Of a DNA stretch of 53,060 nucleotides, positions 3,991-39,519 are shown piece by piece; within the stretch, counting starts at the first letter, position 1, and every line of letters begins with the position of its first letter. Below the pieces are notes generated by a model. The model did no database searches and was not told the origin of the DNA. It saw only the letters and a list, made by a program, of their open reading frames with translations. Location: positions 1-53,060 of the IMG/VR virus record IMGVR_UViG_3300010354_000122; one strand, 5' to 3'. This DNA is from a virus (Duplodnaviria > Caudoviricetes). The position numbers and the translations under genes were made by a program.

Positions 3991-5045
3991 AAGTACTTTT
4001 ACTTGGTGATACTCATTTTGGCGCGCGAAATGATAGTCAAATATTTCATGATTTTTTTGAGCAATTTTATTCGGAGTTCTTTTTCCCATACCTCGAAACA
4101 AATCATGTAGACCACATTATTCAGCTGGGGGATGTCTTTGATAGAAGAAAGTACATCAATTTTCAGTCACTGCATCGAGCAAAGAAATACTTTTTTGATC
4201 CTTTAGCAAAGACAAAAATACCCGTCGACTTCCTTGTTGGTAATCATGACACTTTCTTTCGTAACACCAACGAAGTAAACTCGCTTGGCTTATTGCTTAA
4301 GCAGTACAATTTCAATCTATGGAAAGCTCCAGCTGACATTAACGTTGGAGGCCTTTCCATGCTTCTTGTGCCTTGGATCAATAGTGAGAACGAACAAGAA
4401 GCCCTGGAAGCATTAAAGATTACTAAGTCTCAGATTGCAATTGGTCACTTTGAGATTCAAGGATTTGAAATGTATAGGGGGGCTGTAAGCGACACTGGTC
4501 TTCCTACAACGGTGTTTGATAAATTTGATGCTGTGTACTCAGGACATTTCCATCACAAATCTTCCCGCAAAAATATTCATTATGTTGGTACACCTTATGA
4601 AATGACATGGTCTGATTTTGGTGATCCACACGGCTTCCATATCCTTGATACCCATACACGAGAAGTAGTGTATGTCGAAAATCCGTTCAAGATCTTTGTC
4701 AAGATGTGGTACGACGATGCTGGTAAAGAGATGAGTGATTGTGTTGCTGATGACTACACAAGCTTCAAGAACAAAATGGTTAAGATGATTGTTACCAATA
4801 AAACAAATCCATATTGGTTTGATATGGTAATAGATAAGCTTGAAAAGGCTGGTGTAGCAGATCTACAGGTGGTCGATGACCACCTCAACCTCAACCTAGA
4901 GAATGATGAAGATATTGTTAGTGAAGCTGAAGACACTCTAACAATTCTTAACAAGGTGGTTCAACAAACCAACGTACAGACGGATAAAGAACGCCTTGAT
5001 AAACTAATAAAAGATCTATATAATGAAGCATTAACTATGGAGTAG
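3987..5045 (+). CDS. gp47: Recombination endonuclease subunit (Mre11/SbcD-like)
   Basis: Metallophosphoesterase motifs DTHFG, GDVFD, GNHD, SGHFH. Confidence 0.95.
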   Translation: MKVLLLGDTHFGARNDSQIFHDFFEQFYSEFFFPYLETNHVDHIIQLGDVFDRRKYINFQSLHRAKKYFFDPLAKTKIPVDFLVGNHDTFFRNTNEVNSLGLLLKQYNFNLWKAPADINVGGLSMLLVPWINSENEQEALEALKITKSQIAIGHFEIQGFEMYRGAVSDTGLPTTVFDKFDAVYSGHFHHKSSRKNIHYVGTPYEMTWSDFGDPHGFHILDTHTREVVYVENPFKIFVKMWYDDAGKEMSDCVADDYTSFKNKMVKMIVTNKTNPYWFDMVIDKLEKAGVADLQVVDDHLNLNLENDEDIVSEAEDTLTILNKVVQQTNVQTDKERLDKLIKDLYNEALTME

Positions 5046-22927: not shown

Positions 22928-24313
22928 ATGATTGAAAAATTGATCTTTAGTCATCTTGTTTATGATGACAACTACGCTCGAAAAGTACTTCCGTTCGTTA
23001 AGGAAGACTACTTTGCTGATCATCTTGATAGAACATTATTCAAACTAATCTACGAATTCGTTAATAGGCATAACAAGCTTCCATCGAAGGAGGCGTTAGC
23101 AATCGAGATTAACAACATCGACAGTGTCTCTGATGATGGTTGTAAGACTCTCTTGAAGTTTGTTGATGAGCTGAACTATGACCAAGCAACCGATAGAGAG
23201 TGGCTTGTCACGCAAACTGAGAAGTTCTGCCAAGACAAAGCAATCTACAATGCAATCATGCAGTCGATTCAGATTCTTGACGATAAGACCGGCCAGAAAC
23301 CTAAGGGAGCTATTCCTCAACTGTTGTCTGATGCGTTAGCTGTTTCGTTTGATACAGCTGTTGGCCACGACTTCTTTGCTGATGCTGATAAGCGATATGA
23401 CTTTTATCATATTAAGGAAAAGCGGATTCCGTTTGACCTTGACTACATGAATAAGATTACCAAGGGTGGTATCCCTTCAAAGACACTAAACATTGTATTG
23501 GCTGGTACCGGTGTTGGTAAGTCGTTGTTTATGTGTCATTGTGCTGCTGCTAATCTGACAAAGGGATATAATGTTCTCTATATCACCTTAGAAATGGCTG
23601 AGGAACGAATTGCTGAAAGAATCGATGCAAACATGATGAACTTGTCGATTGATGAGCTTTCTACATTGCCAAGGGATGTCTATCATAAAAAGCTTGATCG
23701 TGTCAAGTCTTCGATTGCTGGAAAGTTGGTGATTAAGGAGTATCCTACCGCTTCAGCTGGAACTGGTCATTTCAGACATTTACTTAACGAGTTGAAAATA
23801 AAGAGGAATTTTATTCCTGATATCATATACGTAGATTACCTAAATATAGCGGTCTCTTCAAGGTTGAAGTTTGGTTCTAACGTAAATTCATATAGTTACG
23901 TAAAAGCAATTGCTGAAGAATTGCGTGGTTTGGCAGTAGAATTCAATGTTCCGATCTTTAGTGCTACTCAGACTACAAGATCTGGATATTCAAGTACAGA
24001 TGTGGGTCTTGAAGATACTTCTGAGAGTTTTGGTCTTCCGGCAACGGCTGATTTAATGATTGCCCTGATGGCGCCAGAAGAACTACAGGACTTGAACCAA
24101 ATGCTTGTTAAGCAGCTTAAGAATCGATACAACGATCCGAACATGAACAAGCGATTTGTTGTGGGTGTAGATCGTCCGAAGTTCAAGCTGTATGATGTTG
24201 AGCAGCATGCTCAGAATGATATCGTTGATGATGGTCCTTCTTTTGACAAGACGCCTTCTGGTAAATCTTTTGGAGAGAAACTTTCCAAAAATGTGTTCGA
24301 CGATTTCAAATGA
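22928..24313 (+). CDS. gp41: Replicative helicase
   Basis: AGTGVGKS, TLEMAEE, VDYLN, SESFGLPATAD and QLKNRY motifs. Confidence 0.96.
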   Translation: MIEKLIFSHLVYDDNYARKVLPFVKEDYFADHLDRTLFKLIYEFVNRHNKLPSKEALAIEINNIDSVSDDGCKTLLKFVDELNYDQATDREWLVTQTEKFCQDKAIYNAIMQSIQILDDKTGQKPKGAIPQLLSDALAVSFDTAVGHDFFADADKRYDFYHIKEKRIPFDLDYMNKITKGGIPSKTLNIVLAGTGVGKSLFMCHCAAANLTKGYNVLYITLEMAEERIAERIDANMMNLSIDELSTLPRDVYHKKLDRVKSSIAGKLVIKEYPTASAGTGHFRHLLNELKIKRNFIPDIIYVDYLNIAVSSRLKFGSNVNSYSYVKAIAEELRGLAVEFNVPIFSATQTTRSGYSSTDVGLEDTSESFGLPATADLMIALMAPEELQDLNQMLVKQLKNRYNDPNMNKRFVVGVDRPKFKLYDVEQHAQNDIVDDGPSFDKTPSGKSFGEKLSKNVFDDFK

Positions 24314-24504
24314 CCAAAGTTTTGTTCTACGCATTGTTTGTACCAATAGTATTCTGTTGCATGGTTGGGTTCGTGTTTGTCGACTTTATGATGGCAATTT
24401 GCAGAGCGATTGGAATTGCTTTTTTTAACTTATTCACAATGCCGAATTGGATTTGTGATTGCTCAAGGGACATTCTTAACGCACTAGTAGACGGAGACGA
24501 ATAA
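24310..24504 (+). CDS. Small hydrophobic hypothetical protein
   Basis: ATGA overlap with gp41; TAATG overlap with the next gene. Confidence 0.5.
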   Translation: MTKVLFYALFVPIVFCCMVGFVFVDFMMAICRAIGIAFFNLFTMPNWICDCSRDILNALVDGDE

Positions 24505-24995
24505 TGAGGATAGCAGTATACAACTGTACCGATCCTTATATCAAAAAGCTTTTGAAGCTTGCTGTCGATGATTATTGTGAAAGATTGTTTGGTGGAGACA
24601 AAAGAAGACTTAAAGGCCTTAGGTTTTCTATACACCTTAAAAAGGAACTTGAGGATAAAAGCGAGGGTGAATGTGAAGTTATTGATTATGAAACGAATGA
24701 GCTTCCAAAAAAATTCAGAATCAATCTTGTAAAAGTGAATCCACCTAGACTTTTTTCTTCGCTTGCCCATGAGATTGTACATGCGTGGCAATTTGCTCAT
24801 GGTTATGTAGACGGGGACTTAAAGAAGTGGAGAGGAAGATGGATTCCTCAATCAACTGATTATTGGGACGAGCCGTGGGAAGTAGAAGCGTATGGTCGTG
24901 AACCTGGTCTCTATGTTAGATTCAAAAGACGTTATCAGTTGGAAGAATATTTTAAACAATTTGACTTAGAACAAGATTTTAAGCCAACGTATTGA
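24504..24995 (+). CDS. HExxH zinc-metallopeptidase-like protein
   Basis: LAHEIVHAWQ...PWEVEAY. Confidence 0.7.
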   Translation: MRIAVYNCTDPYIKKLLKLAVDDYCERLFGGDKRRLKGLRFSIHLKKELEDKSEGECEVIDYETNELPKKFRINLVKVNPPRLFSSLAHEIVHAWQFAHGYVDGDLKKWRGRWIPQSTDYWDEPWEVEAYGREPGLYVRFKRRYQLEEYFKQFDLEQDFKPTY

Positions 24996-25020
24996 TATAT
25001 AAATTTATATGTGGTATAAT
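24992..25020 (+). promoter_or_regulatory. Near-consensus sigma70 promoter driving the atypical tRNA and queD
   Basis: TTGATA (24992-24997), 17 nt, TATAAT (25015-25020) with an extended -10 TG. Confidence 0.8.
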
Positions 25021-25028
25021 TTTATTAT

Positions 25029-25123
25029 GGTAGGCAGCACTGGTGTGCGGCCGGGTCTTATAAACCCGGGAGACTGGCTAGATGGGCTGGAACGGCAGGG
25101 ATCGTAACCCTGGCCTACTACCA
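25029..25123 (+). tRNA. Atypical 95-nt tRNA or tRNA-like RNA, anticodon UAU (nominally Ile), long variable arm
   Basis: Acceptor GGTAGGC/GCCTACT+A+CCA; D arm GCAC-TGGT-GTGC; anticodon arm CCGGGT-CTTATAA-ACCCGG; T arm CAGGG-ATCGTAA-CCCTG. Confidence 0.8.
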
Positions 25124-25149
25124 GATTTTTTTGTTAATGAGGTGATATT

Positions 25150-25599
25150 ATGGCTCGATATAGAAGTACTAAAACTTTTGGTCATGATCTTGGATTCAGT
25201 GCTGCTTTCCGTCAGTGGCGAGCAGACAGCCATTGTAGGTTTATTCATGGTTATGCTTTAGCGTTCCGTTTTGAATTCGAAGCCGACGAGCTCGATCATC
25301 GTAATTGGGTTGTCGACTTTGGTGGTCTCAAAGGTCTCCGTAAGATGTTAGAAGATACGTTCGACCATAAACTTCTCGTAGCGAAAGATGATCCCGAGAT
25401 TGAATGGTTCCGTGAGGCCCATCGCAAGGGTATTGCTGACATTGTCGAAGTCGAGGCCGGCGGTTGTGAGAAGTTTGCTGAGCTTGTGTTTGAATATACA
25501 GAGCAATGGTTGAAGGCGGCTGGGTTCTCTCCTCGATGTCGTCTAGTGTCGGTCGAAGTTAAAGAGCATGGATCTAACTCTGCGATCTGTAGGAAATAG
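25150..25599 (+). CDS. queD: 6-carboxy-5,6,7,8-tetrahydropterin synthase
   Basis: SHCRFIHGY (variant of CxxxHGH), WVVDFG.LK, FDHK and V.E...NSA. Confidence 0.85.
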   Translation: MARYRSTKTFGHDLGFSAAFRQWRADSHCRFIHGYALAFRFEFEADELDHRNWVVDFGGLKGLRKMLEDTFDHKLLVAKDDPEIEWFREAHRKGIADIVEVEAGGCEKFAELVFEYTEQWLKAAGFSPRCRLVSVEVKEHGSNSAICRK

Positions 25600-25600
25600 C

Positions 25601-26125
25601 ATGAAGGTTAACATTGGTCCCTATCCGGAGGGCAGAGATGAACAACAGGTCATTAATGTTCAAATAGAAGAACATGATACTTGGTCAATGGATTTAACGC
25701 TTGCTCACATTATTGTTCCGATGCTTAAACAGCTAAAAGAAACAAAGCATGGCGCTCCAGGATCGTTACCTGAGTTTGCGTTGACGTCAACGGGCAGTTC
25801 CCAATATTGTTTTGATTTCTACAGTGAAGAGGACAACGCAGCATGGGAAGCTGGTCACATGCATTGGGATGAGCTGATGGATAAAATGATCTGGTCTTTT
25901 GAGCAAGTGCTTATTAACTGGGAAGATCAGTATTGGACTGTAAAACCTAAGATCGATCTTGATGCAATGTTGAATCAAAAAGATAATGATAGCGAGGTTA
26001 ACACTCATCCTCTTATCTGGGAGGAGCACGGCGTGTGTGATTGGATAGGTGTGGACAATCATAGGAAAAAAATGCAAGAGGGTTTTGATTTGTTTGGGAA
26101 GTATTTTTGTGATTTGTGGGACTAG
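25601..26125 (+). CDS. Conserved phage hypothetical protein
   Basis: DTWSMDLTLA.II.PMLKQLK..KHGAP...GF.LFGKY...LWD; AGGA RBS. Confidence 0.7.
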   Translation: MKVNIGPYPEGRDEQQVINVQIEEHDTWSMDLTLAHIIVPMLKQLKETKHGAPGSLPEFALTSTGSSQYCFDFYSEEDNAAWEAGHMHWDELMDKMIWSFEQVLINWEDQYWTVKPKIDLDAMLNQKDNDSEVNTHPLIWEEHGVCDWIGVDNHRKKMQEGFDLFGKYFCDLWD

Positions 26126-26208
26126 CCCAAGTGGTGAAACGGCAGACACGCTTGCCTTAGGAGCAAGTGCCGAAAGGCGTGGGGGTTCGAGTCCCTCTTT
26201 GGGCACCA
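26125..26208 (+). tRNA. tRNA-Leu(UAG)
   Basis: GCCCAAG/TTTGGGC acceptor, CTTGC-CTTAGGA-GCAAG anticodon arm, long variable arm, TTCGAGT loop, CCA. Confidence 0.95.
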
Positions 26209-26215
26209 TTTCAAA

Positions 26216-26293
26216 CGGAGTGTAGGTCAGCCTGGTCAGACCGCCTGCTTTGGGAGCAGGATGTCGGGAGTTCGAATCTCTCCACTCCGACCA
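26216..26293 (+). tRNA. tRNA-Pro(UGG)
   Basis: CGGAGTG/CACTCCG acceptor, CCTGC-TTTGGGA-GCAGG, TTCGAAT, CCA. Confidence 0.95.
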
Positions 26294-26326
26294 TTTTTTT
26301 TTATTTTTAACCGTAAGGAGTATATC

Positions 26327-26761
26327 ATGGAGTTGAAGGGAAGCAAGACTGCAGAATGTTTAAAAGAAGCGTTTGCTGGTGAGTCGATGGCTAACCGTCG
26401 TTATCTTTACTTTGCAAACATGGCCGACATTGCTGGTGCACAGGAAGTGGCTAACGTGTTCCGTAACACGGCTGAGGGTGAGACCGGTCACGCTCATGGC
26501 CACATGGAGTATTTGTTGAACCTTGGCGCTGGTGATCCTGGTACTGGCGAACAAGTTAAGAACGTCGAACAAGCTCTCCATTCTGCAATTGAAGGAGAAA
26601 CCCACGAGTATACCGACATGTATCCTGGTATGGCTAAGACTGCTCGCGAAGAAGGGTTTGATGAAATCGCTGACTGGTTCGAGACACTTGCTAAAGCTGA
26701 GCGTTCACACGCCGGCAAGTTCAAGCGTACTCTTGACGCCTATAAGGCTGAAGGAAACTAA
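26327..26761 (+). CDS. rbr: Rubrerythrin (short form, no rubredoxin domain)
   Basis: [38 protein letters not shown] and AE.SH diiron motifs; AAGGAG RBS. Confidence 0.92.
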
Positions 26762-28710: not shown

Positions 28711-28914
28711 ATGTCTCACCTCAATAATTTAAAAAAATGGGTTCTCCAGCCTGCTTCAGATGAAGTACAGGCTGAAAGACTCGCCATTTGTCATGCGTGT
28801 CCTGAATACAAAGCACAGATAAATTTATGTAACATGTGCAAATGTCTTGTCGGTCTAAAGGTGGGGCTTGCACGTCAAAAGTGTCCACTTGATAAATGGA
28901 TGGATATTAAGTAG
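28711..28914 (+). CDS. Small Cys-rich, probably metal-binding protein
   Basis: R..IC..CP...C..C.C...K......CPLDKW. Confidence 0.7.
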   Translation: MSHLNNLKKWVLQPASDEVQAERLAICHACPEYKAQINLCNMCKCLVGLKVGLARQKCPLDKWMDIK

Positions 28915-28998
28915 GGTGCCGAGAAGCATTGGTGACTTCAGCAGACTGTAAATCTGTCGCCTCAGGCATACGGGGTTCGAATCCCTGGGCACCCACCA
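28914..28998 (+). tRNA. tRNA-Tyr(GUA)
   Basis: GGGTGCC/GGCACCC acceptor, GCAGA-CTGTAAA-TCTGT, variable arm, CCA. Confidence 0.93.
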
Positions 28999-38203: not shown

Positions 38204-39519
38204 TGGCACAATTTAGAACTGATATTAAGAAGCTTGATGGCTCCAATCTTGTAACGAGATTTGAAGTACAGATGTTGAATGACAGGCTAACGCCGGCAGG
38301 TACTTTGACGGATGCGTTTGGACGCATGCGCGTATCTGAGCCACTAACCCTCTTTGACAGCCAGCATCGCTATCAAGATAATGGTAAGTTCAATACGGCA
38401 AACAGCGCTGGCTGCAACACGGTATATCAAGCAAACGAATCCACTATAGATCTCAACGTTGGCACAACAGCAAACACTCACGTTTATAGAGAAACAACAA
38501 AAGTGTTTGCTTATCAGCCTGGCAAGTCGTTGCTTGTAATGAATACATTTGCAATGAACACACCTAAAGCTAATCTGAGACAACGCGTTGGATATTTTTC
38601 TACACAAAACGGAATATTTTTAGAAAACGACGGAACGACCAATTATCTTGTTCTGAGATCGTATGCTAACGGCACGGTCGTAGATACGAGAGTTGCTCAA
38701 ACAAACTGGAACGTTGACACGTTTGATGGTAACGGATACTCTGCACAAGGTAGTGGGCCAGAACACGGTAGTGGTCTTGATGTTTCAAAAACAAACATAT
38801 TTTGGATTGATGTGGAGTGGCTTGGAGTAGGAGATGTGCGGTGTGGATTTGTTGTTGATGGTAAGTTGGTTCCTGCTCATATTTTTCACAATGATAACCT
38901 AAGAACAACCGTCTACATGACGACAGCATGCTTACCAATTCGTTATGAGATTGAAAACACAGGTACAACAGCGTCCAACTCAACAATGAAGCAGATTTGC
39001 TCTACTGTGATATCAGAAGGCGGGTATCAACTTTTTGGTAAGCAGTTTGGTATTGGCCGCCCTCTTGCTTCTCCGAAAGATCTAACAACTGCGGCAACGT
39101 TTTACCCTGTTGTAAGTATACGCCTTCATGCAAACCGACTTGACTCAATCGTTATACCGAGAAAAGTAACGTTCGTCGGCGTGACAAACAATACAAACTA
39201 CAGATACAAGGTTGTTGTGAATCCCACCTTAGACGCAAACGCTAGCTGGGTTAATGCAACCTCCGATGGTGTATCTTCAGTTGAGTATGATTTCTCAGCA
39301 ACTGGTTATACAGGTGGTCGCGATGTTGTGATTGGATACTCAACCGTATCTAGCGGTGAGAAAGCCCAGGCGACAACACTTGAGGACGGATTGTTTAGAT
39401 TCCAGCTTGAACGAAACTCATTTACAAACACAGCTGTTGTGTTTTCATTAGTTGCAACAGGTGCAGCAAACGGTGACGACGCTCTTGGTGCAATTGAATG
39501 GGAAGAAATATTCCAATGA
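38203..39519 (+). CDS. Probable virion structural protein
   Basis: Thr/Asn/Gly-rich; DAFGR.RVS.P.TLFD, YQPGKS and WLGVG motifs typical of large-phage structural proteins. Confidence 0.6.
   Translation: MAQFRTDIKKLDGSNLVTRFEVQMLNDRLTPAGTLTDAFGRMRVSEPLTLFDSQHRYQDNGKFNTANSAGCNTVYQANESTIDLNVGTTANTHVYRETTKVFAYQPGKSLLVMNTFAMNTPKANLRQRVGYFSTQNGIFLENDGTTNYLVLRSYANGTVVDTRVAQTNWNVDTFDGNGYSAQGSGPEHGSGLDVSKTNIFWIDVEWLGVGDVRCGFVVDGKLVPAHIFHNDNLRTTVYMTTACLPIRYEIENTGTTASNSTMKQICSTVISEGGYQLFGKQFGIGRPLASPKDLTTAATFYPVVSIRLHANRLDSIVIPRKVTFVGVTNNTNYRYKVVVNPTLDANASWVNATSDGVSSVEYDFSATGYTGGRDVVIGYSTVSSGEKAQATTLEDGLFRFQLERNSFTNTAVVFSLVATGAANGDDALGAIEWEEIFQ

Follow-up and report, generated by a model that had tools for sequence, protein, structure and literature searches.

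A 95-nt tRNA gene with the anticodon UAU (25059-61) is located at positions 25029-25123 on the plus strand of a phage genome fragment, and comparison with its relatives indicates that it is probably a functional phage gene for a non-canonical tRNA-Ile(UAU), which would act independently of lysidine. The fragment (IMG/VR record IMGVR_UViG_3300010354_000122) was analysed over its whole stretch of 53,060 nt, referred to as the window. AUA is normally read through lysidine in bacteria and phages, and a long extra arm is taken to mark their tRNAs for Leu, Ser, Tyr and Sec. In the family described here, widespread and phage-restricted, the anticodon for AUA is part of a tRNA that has a long arm and only a minimal D arm. 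If its members are charged with isoleucine, a tRNA of markedly different architecture is acceptable to IleRS, EF-Tu and the ribosome, and it would also be a natural scaffold for AUA codon engineering. Because ARAGORN recovers 18 of 52 family members and misses 34, and the Rfam tRNA model misses such genes, too, phage tRNA inventories and codon-usage arguments are left without an AUA reader for these phages.

According to its gp41 helicase, the window phage is a T4-like myovirus (~58-61% identical to Stenotrophomonas phage DLP_6 and cyanomyoviruses), and the fragment is estimated to be 29% complete. Metagenomes from 10 studies, many of them labelled fresh water or lake, contain the same DNA; there is no RNA run among the sequencing runs listed for it.

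Architecture and covariation of the family

The gene would specify a rebuilt cloverleaf, in which a single nucleotide (A25036) replaces positions 8-9. The acceptor stem (25029-35 with 25113-19), whose first pair is a G·U wobble, and the T stem (25096-100 with 25108-12) have the usual seven and five pairs. The reduced D arm (25036-25050) comprises this one-nucleotide connector, a 4-bp stem (25037-40 with 25045-48), the tetraloop UGGU, which holds G18 and G19, and two nucleotides, GG (25049-50), leading to the anticodon arm. In the anticodon arm (25051-25069), the stem (25051-56 with 25064-69) bears the loop CUUAUAA and consists of five conserved pairs and an innermost U-A pair, possibly one extra stacking layer. 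The 26-nt variable region (25070-25095) is made up of GAGA, a 6-bp extra-arm stem (25074-79 with 25085-90; three pairs are G·U), the loop AGAUG (25080-84) and AACGG. In the T arm (25096-25112), the loop AUCGUAA has the A54/U58 form with U55 and C56 kept, and the 3' end is formed by A73 (25120) and an encoded CCA (25121-23). The general hallmarks of a tRNA are all found: 7-bp acceptor stem, 5-bp T stem, elbow and a 7-nt anticodon loop with U33 and a purine at position 37. The extra-arm loop presents the triplet G-A-U, which is identical to the anticodon of the major tRNA for isoleucine. The minimum-free-energy fold of the 95 nt is the same five-helix cloverleaf. Since the folding energy of the single sequence is unexceptional (z = -1.64; 12 of 200 shuffles fold equally well), it is the comparison with relatives, and not this energy, that makes the case for the fold.

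For this comparison, 67 distinct family sequences were aligned. Sequences had to have at least 6/7 acceptor pairs, at least 4/5 T-stem pairs, GG, GARA and CCA, and the figures for these elements are inflated because the filter demanded them; no pairing filter was applied to the extra-arm helix or to the D and anticodon stems. Scored against the explicit structure, base pairing is seen in 98.0% of 1876 cells, and shifting the 3' partners by 1-3 columns lowers this to 30-46%. Both sides vary in 16 of the 28 pairs, and the covariation score is reached by none of 500 shuffles. RNAalifold, applied to the 67 relatives without a given structure, arrives at five helices, with compensatory changes in 15 of 27 pairs. 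The acceptor and T helices (both pre-filtered) are 100% paired and covary, the latter in four of its five pairs. The extra-arm stem is likewise 100% paired, its first pair being C-G in 35, G-C in 14, U-A in 14 and U·G in 4 sequences, and is real. The third D-stem pair is A-U in 61 and G-C in 6 sequences, and more D-stem forms occur among the metagenome matches. The original prediction had made compensatory changes in homologues a point on which it could fail; such changes were found, and all five helices are supported. Its reading of the cleanly paired stems as an argument against decay was right, and the covariation of the family backs it far more strongly.

The alignment also separates family traits from features of the single copy. 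The 7-bp acceptor stem, A73 and CCA had been described correctly, and the one-nucleotide connector between acceptor and D stem, the UGGU loop and the variable region of roughly 26 nt are not only present in the window copy but belong to the family-wide traits, which are the one-nucleotide connector, a D tetraloop (4 nt in 63/67, UGGU in 56/67), the GG connector and an extra arm with AGAUG in its loop (63/67). A73 occurs in 67/67 aligned members. The flanks GAGA and AACGG recur throughout, GAGA being partly fixed by the search patterns and the filter. The elbow is kept as well, in that the GG of the D loop, U55 and C56 are invariant and positions 54 and 58 covary. Two other features highlighted originally hold for the window copy and not for the family. 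The sixth anticodon-stem pair, which makes the stem 6 bp long, is unpaired in 38/67 sequences (A/A 23, C/A 10, C/U 5), and the consensus anticodon arm of RNAalifold has 5 bp and a 9-nt loop. The T loop AUCGUAA represents a swap of positions 54 and 58, which are U/A in 41, A/U in 25 and A/A in 1 of the 67 sequences, and the textbook loop UUCGAAU is found in 30/67.

Other ways of drawing the molecule were rejected. Acceptor/T stems of 8/4 or 9/3 are at odds with pairs 7-66 and 49-65, which covary as expected for 7/5 (alignment columns 7/88 and 71/87), and position 8 (A or G) does not track its would-be partner. A Sec-type D stem of 6 bp was rejected on covariation.

Distribution, detection and tRNA arrays

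A 17-nt query from the T arm led to eight viral loci: five clear homologues, which have the same architecture and anticodon and different stems, two ordinary tRNAs that share this T arm and one unrelated sequence. Phage tRNAs that are ordinary in other respects can have the swapped loop AUCGUAA on this T stem, too: a His(GUG) tRNA and a CAU tRNA whose C-rich acceptor is Ile2-like (L014 and L015, both matching at 401-417). A 15-mer search gave mostly chance matches in coding DNA among the matches listed, and longer patterns were used instead, each of which kept some part of the molecule constant. One, constrained in the extra arm alone, occurs in 52 viral contigs, and another, constrained in the D arm and GGAGA alone, in 90; 22 contigs are common to both, which leaves 120 distinct viral contigs besides the window's own record. 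Among the 52 printed extra-arm matches, all 51 that reach the 3' end have A73 and CCA. The metagenome collection holds at least 120 matching contigs, mostly from fresh water, with 92 distinct sequences among the matches listed.

Outside these contigs, the family is scarce. Two exact-pattern scans of 185,579 prokaryote species genomes yielded 0 and 1 match; the sole match (L449) lies on a 3-kb contig of a gammaproteobacterial metagenome-assembled genome, where the element ends a Gln-Ser-Ser tRNA array, and is probably a binned phage fragment, i.e. a binning artefact. The 95 nt had no blastn match in 50,697 isolated-phage records, an exact 33-nt stretch of the gene had none in the viral contigs, and the only isolated-phage sequences that megablast found for 24000-26500 were ordinary Leu and Pro tRNAs. 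No family member was present in 80 loci (807 kb) around related gp41 helicases. Judged from these searches, the family appears to be found almost only in uncultured phages.

Standard tools handle the gene poorly. The tRNA-Ile(tat) called by ARAGORN spans 25023-25122, and its acceptor stem is badly paired. Rfam at gathering scores lists 10 of the 12 window tRNAs of ARAGORN and has no match at the gene; in a permissive scan, the best family is tRNA-Sec (RF01852) with 27.0 bits, against a gathering score of 47. RF00005 matches likewise omit the family members in four large contigs (G001, G002, G004 and G005). A tRNA-Tyr(gta) called by ARAGORN at 28914-28998 of the window falls below the Rfam gathering score, too, though its drawn cloverleaf looks normal. 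The family covariance model (R1), by contrast with these general tools, gives the window copy 116.3 bits over exactly 25029-25123; divergent members reach 74-95 bits, and every ordinary tRNA met stays at or below 25 bits.

Other tRNAs occur within 1.5 kb at 46 of 52 family loci, often at a distance of just 2-10 nt, and given this array placement, the family RNA must be cut from array transcripts like its neighbours. Each of the four large contigs (one of them estimated complete, 400 kb) encodes 23-31 tRNAs, almost one per anticodon, with the family member as the sole UAU tRNA; ARAGORN missed all four members. Three of the four also carry three CAU tRNAs, of which we take one to be initiator-like and one elongator-Met-like, the third being most simply a lysidine-type Ile tRNA. 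Such a CAU tRNA is located within 1.5 kb at 17 of 52 family loci, sometimes directly adjacent. Two different phages (L577 11334-11412, from G004; L572 650-728, from G005) have an identical 79-nt CAU tRNA, whose D loop is enlarged and whose acceptor is C-rich. This tRNA is also present in L219, L254, L261 and L264 and is often found beside or close to the long-armed UAU tRNA, suggesting that the two AUA-related tRNAs move together. Codons ending in A are favoured by 9 of the other 11 window tRNAs, whose wobble base is U. A role of the long-armed tRNA as a spare for a defective ordinary UAU tRNA next to it was considered and rejected, as no second UAU stem-loop is present within 1.5 kb (52 loci) or 3 kb (window).

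Codon meaning, competing readings and transcription

The two search patterns left the anticodon free; nevertheless, UAU is found in 52/52 extra-arm matches and in 90/90 matches to the D arm and GGAGA. The 7-nt loop keeps Y32, U33, UAU and A37 throughout and A38 in 88/90; in the alignment, it reads CUUAUAA in 57/67 and UUUAUAA in 10/67 sequences. ATA is in regular use in the window (176 codons in 65 ORFs, 11 per 1000 codons and 18% of Ile codons). In 89 related loci, the homologue residues opposite ATA are I in 54%, L in 19% and V in 15%, indistinguishable from the controls, where I/L/V amount to 51/14/13% opposite ATT and 55/16/11% opposite ATC; the nine conserved ATA sites have Ile in 7, Val in 1 and Leu in 1. 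ATA therefore means isoleucine in the window phage.

LeuRS is a relative of IleRS from the same synthetase class and handles long-armed tRNAs, and for this reason the extra arm need not block IleRS. The strong determinants of isoleucine identity are, in the excerpted text of PMC9976931, A73, the anticodon bases and position 37; A73, A35, U36, A37 (a possible t6A site) and A38 are all found in the family. Among the minor E. coli determinants given there (C4-G69, pair 12-23, C29-G41 and G16, D20 and D21 of the D loop), most are absent: C4-G69 occurs in 8/67 sequences, the third D-stem pair is A-U or G-C, and a 4-nt D loop is too small for G16, D20 and D21. G34 or lysidine-34 also counts as a feature of isoleucine tRNAs; position 34 is U in the family.

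The tRNA could serve the phage in the following manner: Early in infection, it would be transcribed from its own sigma-70-type promoter, possibly together with the downstream gene queD, and the transcript would be trimmed to the encoded CCA. Host IleRS would then charge it via A73, A35, U36, A37 and A38, and AUA would be read as isoleucine with U34, so without lysidine and TilS, supplying the phage for a codon that it uses regularly. The GAGA and AACGG flanks are suspected to fill the core that so small a D loop leaves empty. AUG might be read as well if U34 is unmodified or carries an ordinary modification. Among the three options originally offered, an AUA decoder without lysidine best fits the invariant UAU, the arrays and the meaning of ATA; the ATA data and A73 lower the probability that the tRNA is charged with a different amino acid.

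The third option, a decoy, belongs to a wider reading that we consider rather unlikely. The RNA would be a non-decoding mimic, i.e. a decoy or shield against tRNA-directed defences, a regulator or mere cargo of a tRNA-array module, perhaps charged but no adaptor on the ribosome. The near-invariance of the extra arm and its flanks, while every stem drifts, suggests a specific partner. In three of the four large contigs, a CAU tRNA apparently serves AUA already, and this tRNA adjoins the family member in several loci; if it is of the lysidine type, AUA is covered twice, which leaves room for a non-decoding role. A precedent is reported in the available portion of PMC5389517, where odd-shaped allo-tRNA(UAU) variants were inactive in E. 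coli translation and a non-decoding role was suggested. Against a mimic, a perfect anticodon loop, CCA, A73 and the elbow contacts are kept, and the gene is the sole UAU tRNA within nearly one-of-each sets. Nor does a conserved protein partner stand beside the family tRNA in the 53 loci compared; the commonest real neighbour, found in 7/53, is a homologue of the ORF upstream of the window tRNA (24504-24995, 163 aa), which has an HExxH motif and a weak Peptidase_M91 match (E 0.01, below the cut-off). HNH-type endonuclease ORFs recur in some arrays with the family tRNA (L218, L261 and related loci), in two clusters of 4 loci each.

A more speculative extension of the AUA decoder, to which we give a similarly low probability, is an AUA reader exempt from the tRNA rules of the host. 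The arm, and not position 34, would set its identity, and its body would evade wobble modifiers and anticodon nucleases, which would allow TilS-free AUA translation even when the host attacks or withholds tRNA; alternatively, the arm may recruit a different synthetase or a phage factor.

Mischarging is improbable. It would require that LeuRS, which ignores the anticodon, or SerRS charges the tRNA and that AUA is partly translated as Leu or Ser. The long arm, A73 and the intact contacts G18:U55, G19-C56 and 54:58 are compatible with this, and nev-tRNA-Ile(UAU) provides a precedent, since UAU nev-tRNAs accept only leucine in vitro (PMC3333845, excerpt). As A73 and these D/T-loop contacts, which LeuRS needs, are the core of E. 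coli Leu identity in the excerpted PMC9976931, leucine charging keeps some probability. However, Ile conservation at ATA sites equals that at ATT and ATC sites, and the 4-nt D loop is without A15 and A20a, both reported there as essential for E. coli LeuRS. SerRS is disfavoured by A73, because G73, and not A73, accompanies Ser according to the same source text.

The preferred reading, a lysidine-independent tRNA-Ile(UAU), includes transcription from a promoter of its own, which the original prediction had called strong. A matching sigma-70-type site is predicted at 24992-25020 on the plus strand, with the -35 element TTGATA (24992-97), a 17-nt spacer, TG (25012-13) and the -10 element TATAAT (25015-20). 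It scores 11/12, ends 8 nt before the tRNA, and is the best of 23 sites in 24.4-35 kb; the start would be placed 1-2 nt before G1 of the tRNA. Of the four window sites scoring at least 11/12, all on the plus strand, it is the only one with TG; the random expectation per strand is 0.87 such sites, and 0.05 with TG. The other three (2595-2623, 4996-5024 and 38354-38382) have no counterpart on the minus strand, and all 65 ORFs are encoded on the plus strand as well. A run of seven T (25126-25132, plus strand) starts 2 nt after CCA and is possibly a 3' processing or weak termination signal; it was not seen after other family members and is specific to the window copy. It is followed on the same strand by the ribosome-binding site GAGGTG and a queD/PTPS-type gene (25139-25599 together, gene 25150-25599; Pfam PF01242, E 1.4e-17), which has this ribosome-binding site of its own and is probably co-transcribed with the tRNA, with no functional tie. 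In three relatives (L001, ~2153-2243; L002; L003), whose queD is 84-88% identical to that of the window, a near-consensus promoter and a conserved hairpin with an A-rich tail take the place of the tRNA. This hairpin, possibly a leader of a kind not yet described, has a weak match to freshwater-2 in Rfam (16 bits, E 2.2). A preQ1 riboswitch or leader was also considered, and none from Rfam was found in the window region or in the related queD leader.

Although the gene sits between the promoter and queD and is followed by the T run, and related queD genes have a promoter and hairpin leader at the same place, a cis-acting queD leader or attenuator, or else a decaying tRNA pseudogene, is very improbable: the leader is contradicted by the distribution of the family, with the same RNA on the 120 other contigs in tRNA arrays without queD and 9/9 related queD loci without a tRNA or any similarity in a synteny search, no terminator was called after the tRNA gene, and the helices are intact and covary.

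Comparison with known tRNAs

No description of a long-armed phage tRNA with 7/5 stems, A73 and UAU was found in full-text literature searches, though the published drawings of allo-tRNA(UAU) may bear on this claim. Among tRNAs with the same anticodon, the T4 tRNA-Ile is an ordinary short-armed tRNA-Ile(UAU), and a 76-nt ordinary tRNA-Ile(UAU) is present in one related phage locus. Another such short-armed tRNA is described for Mycoplasma mobile (PMC3575796, excerpt). These ordinary tRNAs have the same presumed lysidine-free AUA task as the window tRNA but a normal D arm and a variable loop of 4-5 nt. The nev-tRNA-Ile(UAU) of nematodes, a eukaryotic tRNA, derives from tRNA-Leu and accepts Leu (PMC3333845, excerpt), whereas the phage family has no likeness to the window phage's own tRNAs for Leu, Ser or Tyr, which score 16-20 bits with R1, and ATA means Ile in this phage. 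With class II tRNAs, the family shares the base-paired extra arm; it has neither an anticodon for Leu, Ser, Tyr or Sec nor a normal-sized D loop.

The likeness to tRNA-Pyl suggested originally does not hold up. tRNA-Pyl has a one-nucleotide connector, a 3-nt variable loop, neither G18/G19 nor T-psi-C, and the anticodon CUA; the window tRNA has G18/G19, U55/C56 and a long arm, its 6-bp anticodon stem is copy-specific, and the connector alone is common to both. tRNA-Sec (RF01852), the best Rfam match, is closer with regard to length class, the 4-nt D loop, the long extra arm and the longer anticodon arm. tRNA-Sec itself, however, has the anticodon UCA, 8/5 stems (a 13-bp acceptor plus T helix) and a 6-bp D stem, in contrast to the UAU anticodon, 7/5 stems and 4-bp D stem found here with a score of 27.0 bits.

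The most similar overall look is that of the allo-tRNAs (Mukai et al. 2017, PMC5389517; points from the accessible part of the article). Allo-tRNA(UAU) has in common with the window tRNA the tRNA-Sec-like appearance with a long arm, a D tetraloop and a lengthened anticodon stem, and both were picked up through the tRNA-Sec model (here with 27 bits). UAU is the commonest of the 35 anticodons reported for the group, which resides in Acidobacteria, Clostridia and Proteobacteria. Allo-tRNAs, however, combine acceptor/T stems of 8/4 or 9/3 with a long D stem and a serine-type discriminator, G73 or U73, neither the stem composition nor the discriminator being found in the aligned family, whereas the phage tRNAs combine 7/5 stems with a 4-bp D stem, A73 and UAU as the only anticodon, and reside in phages.
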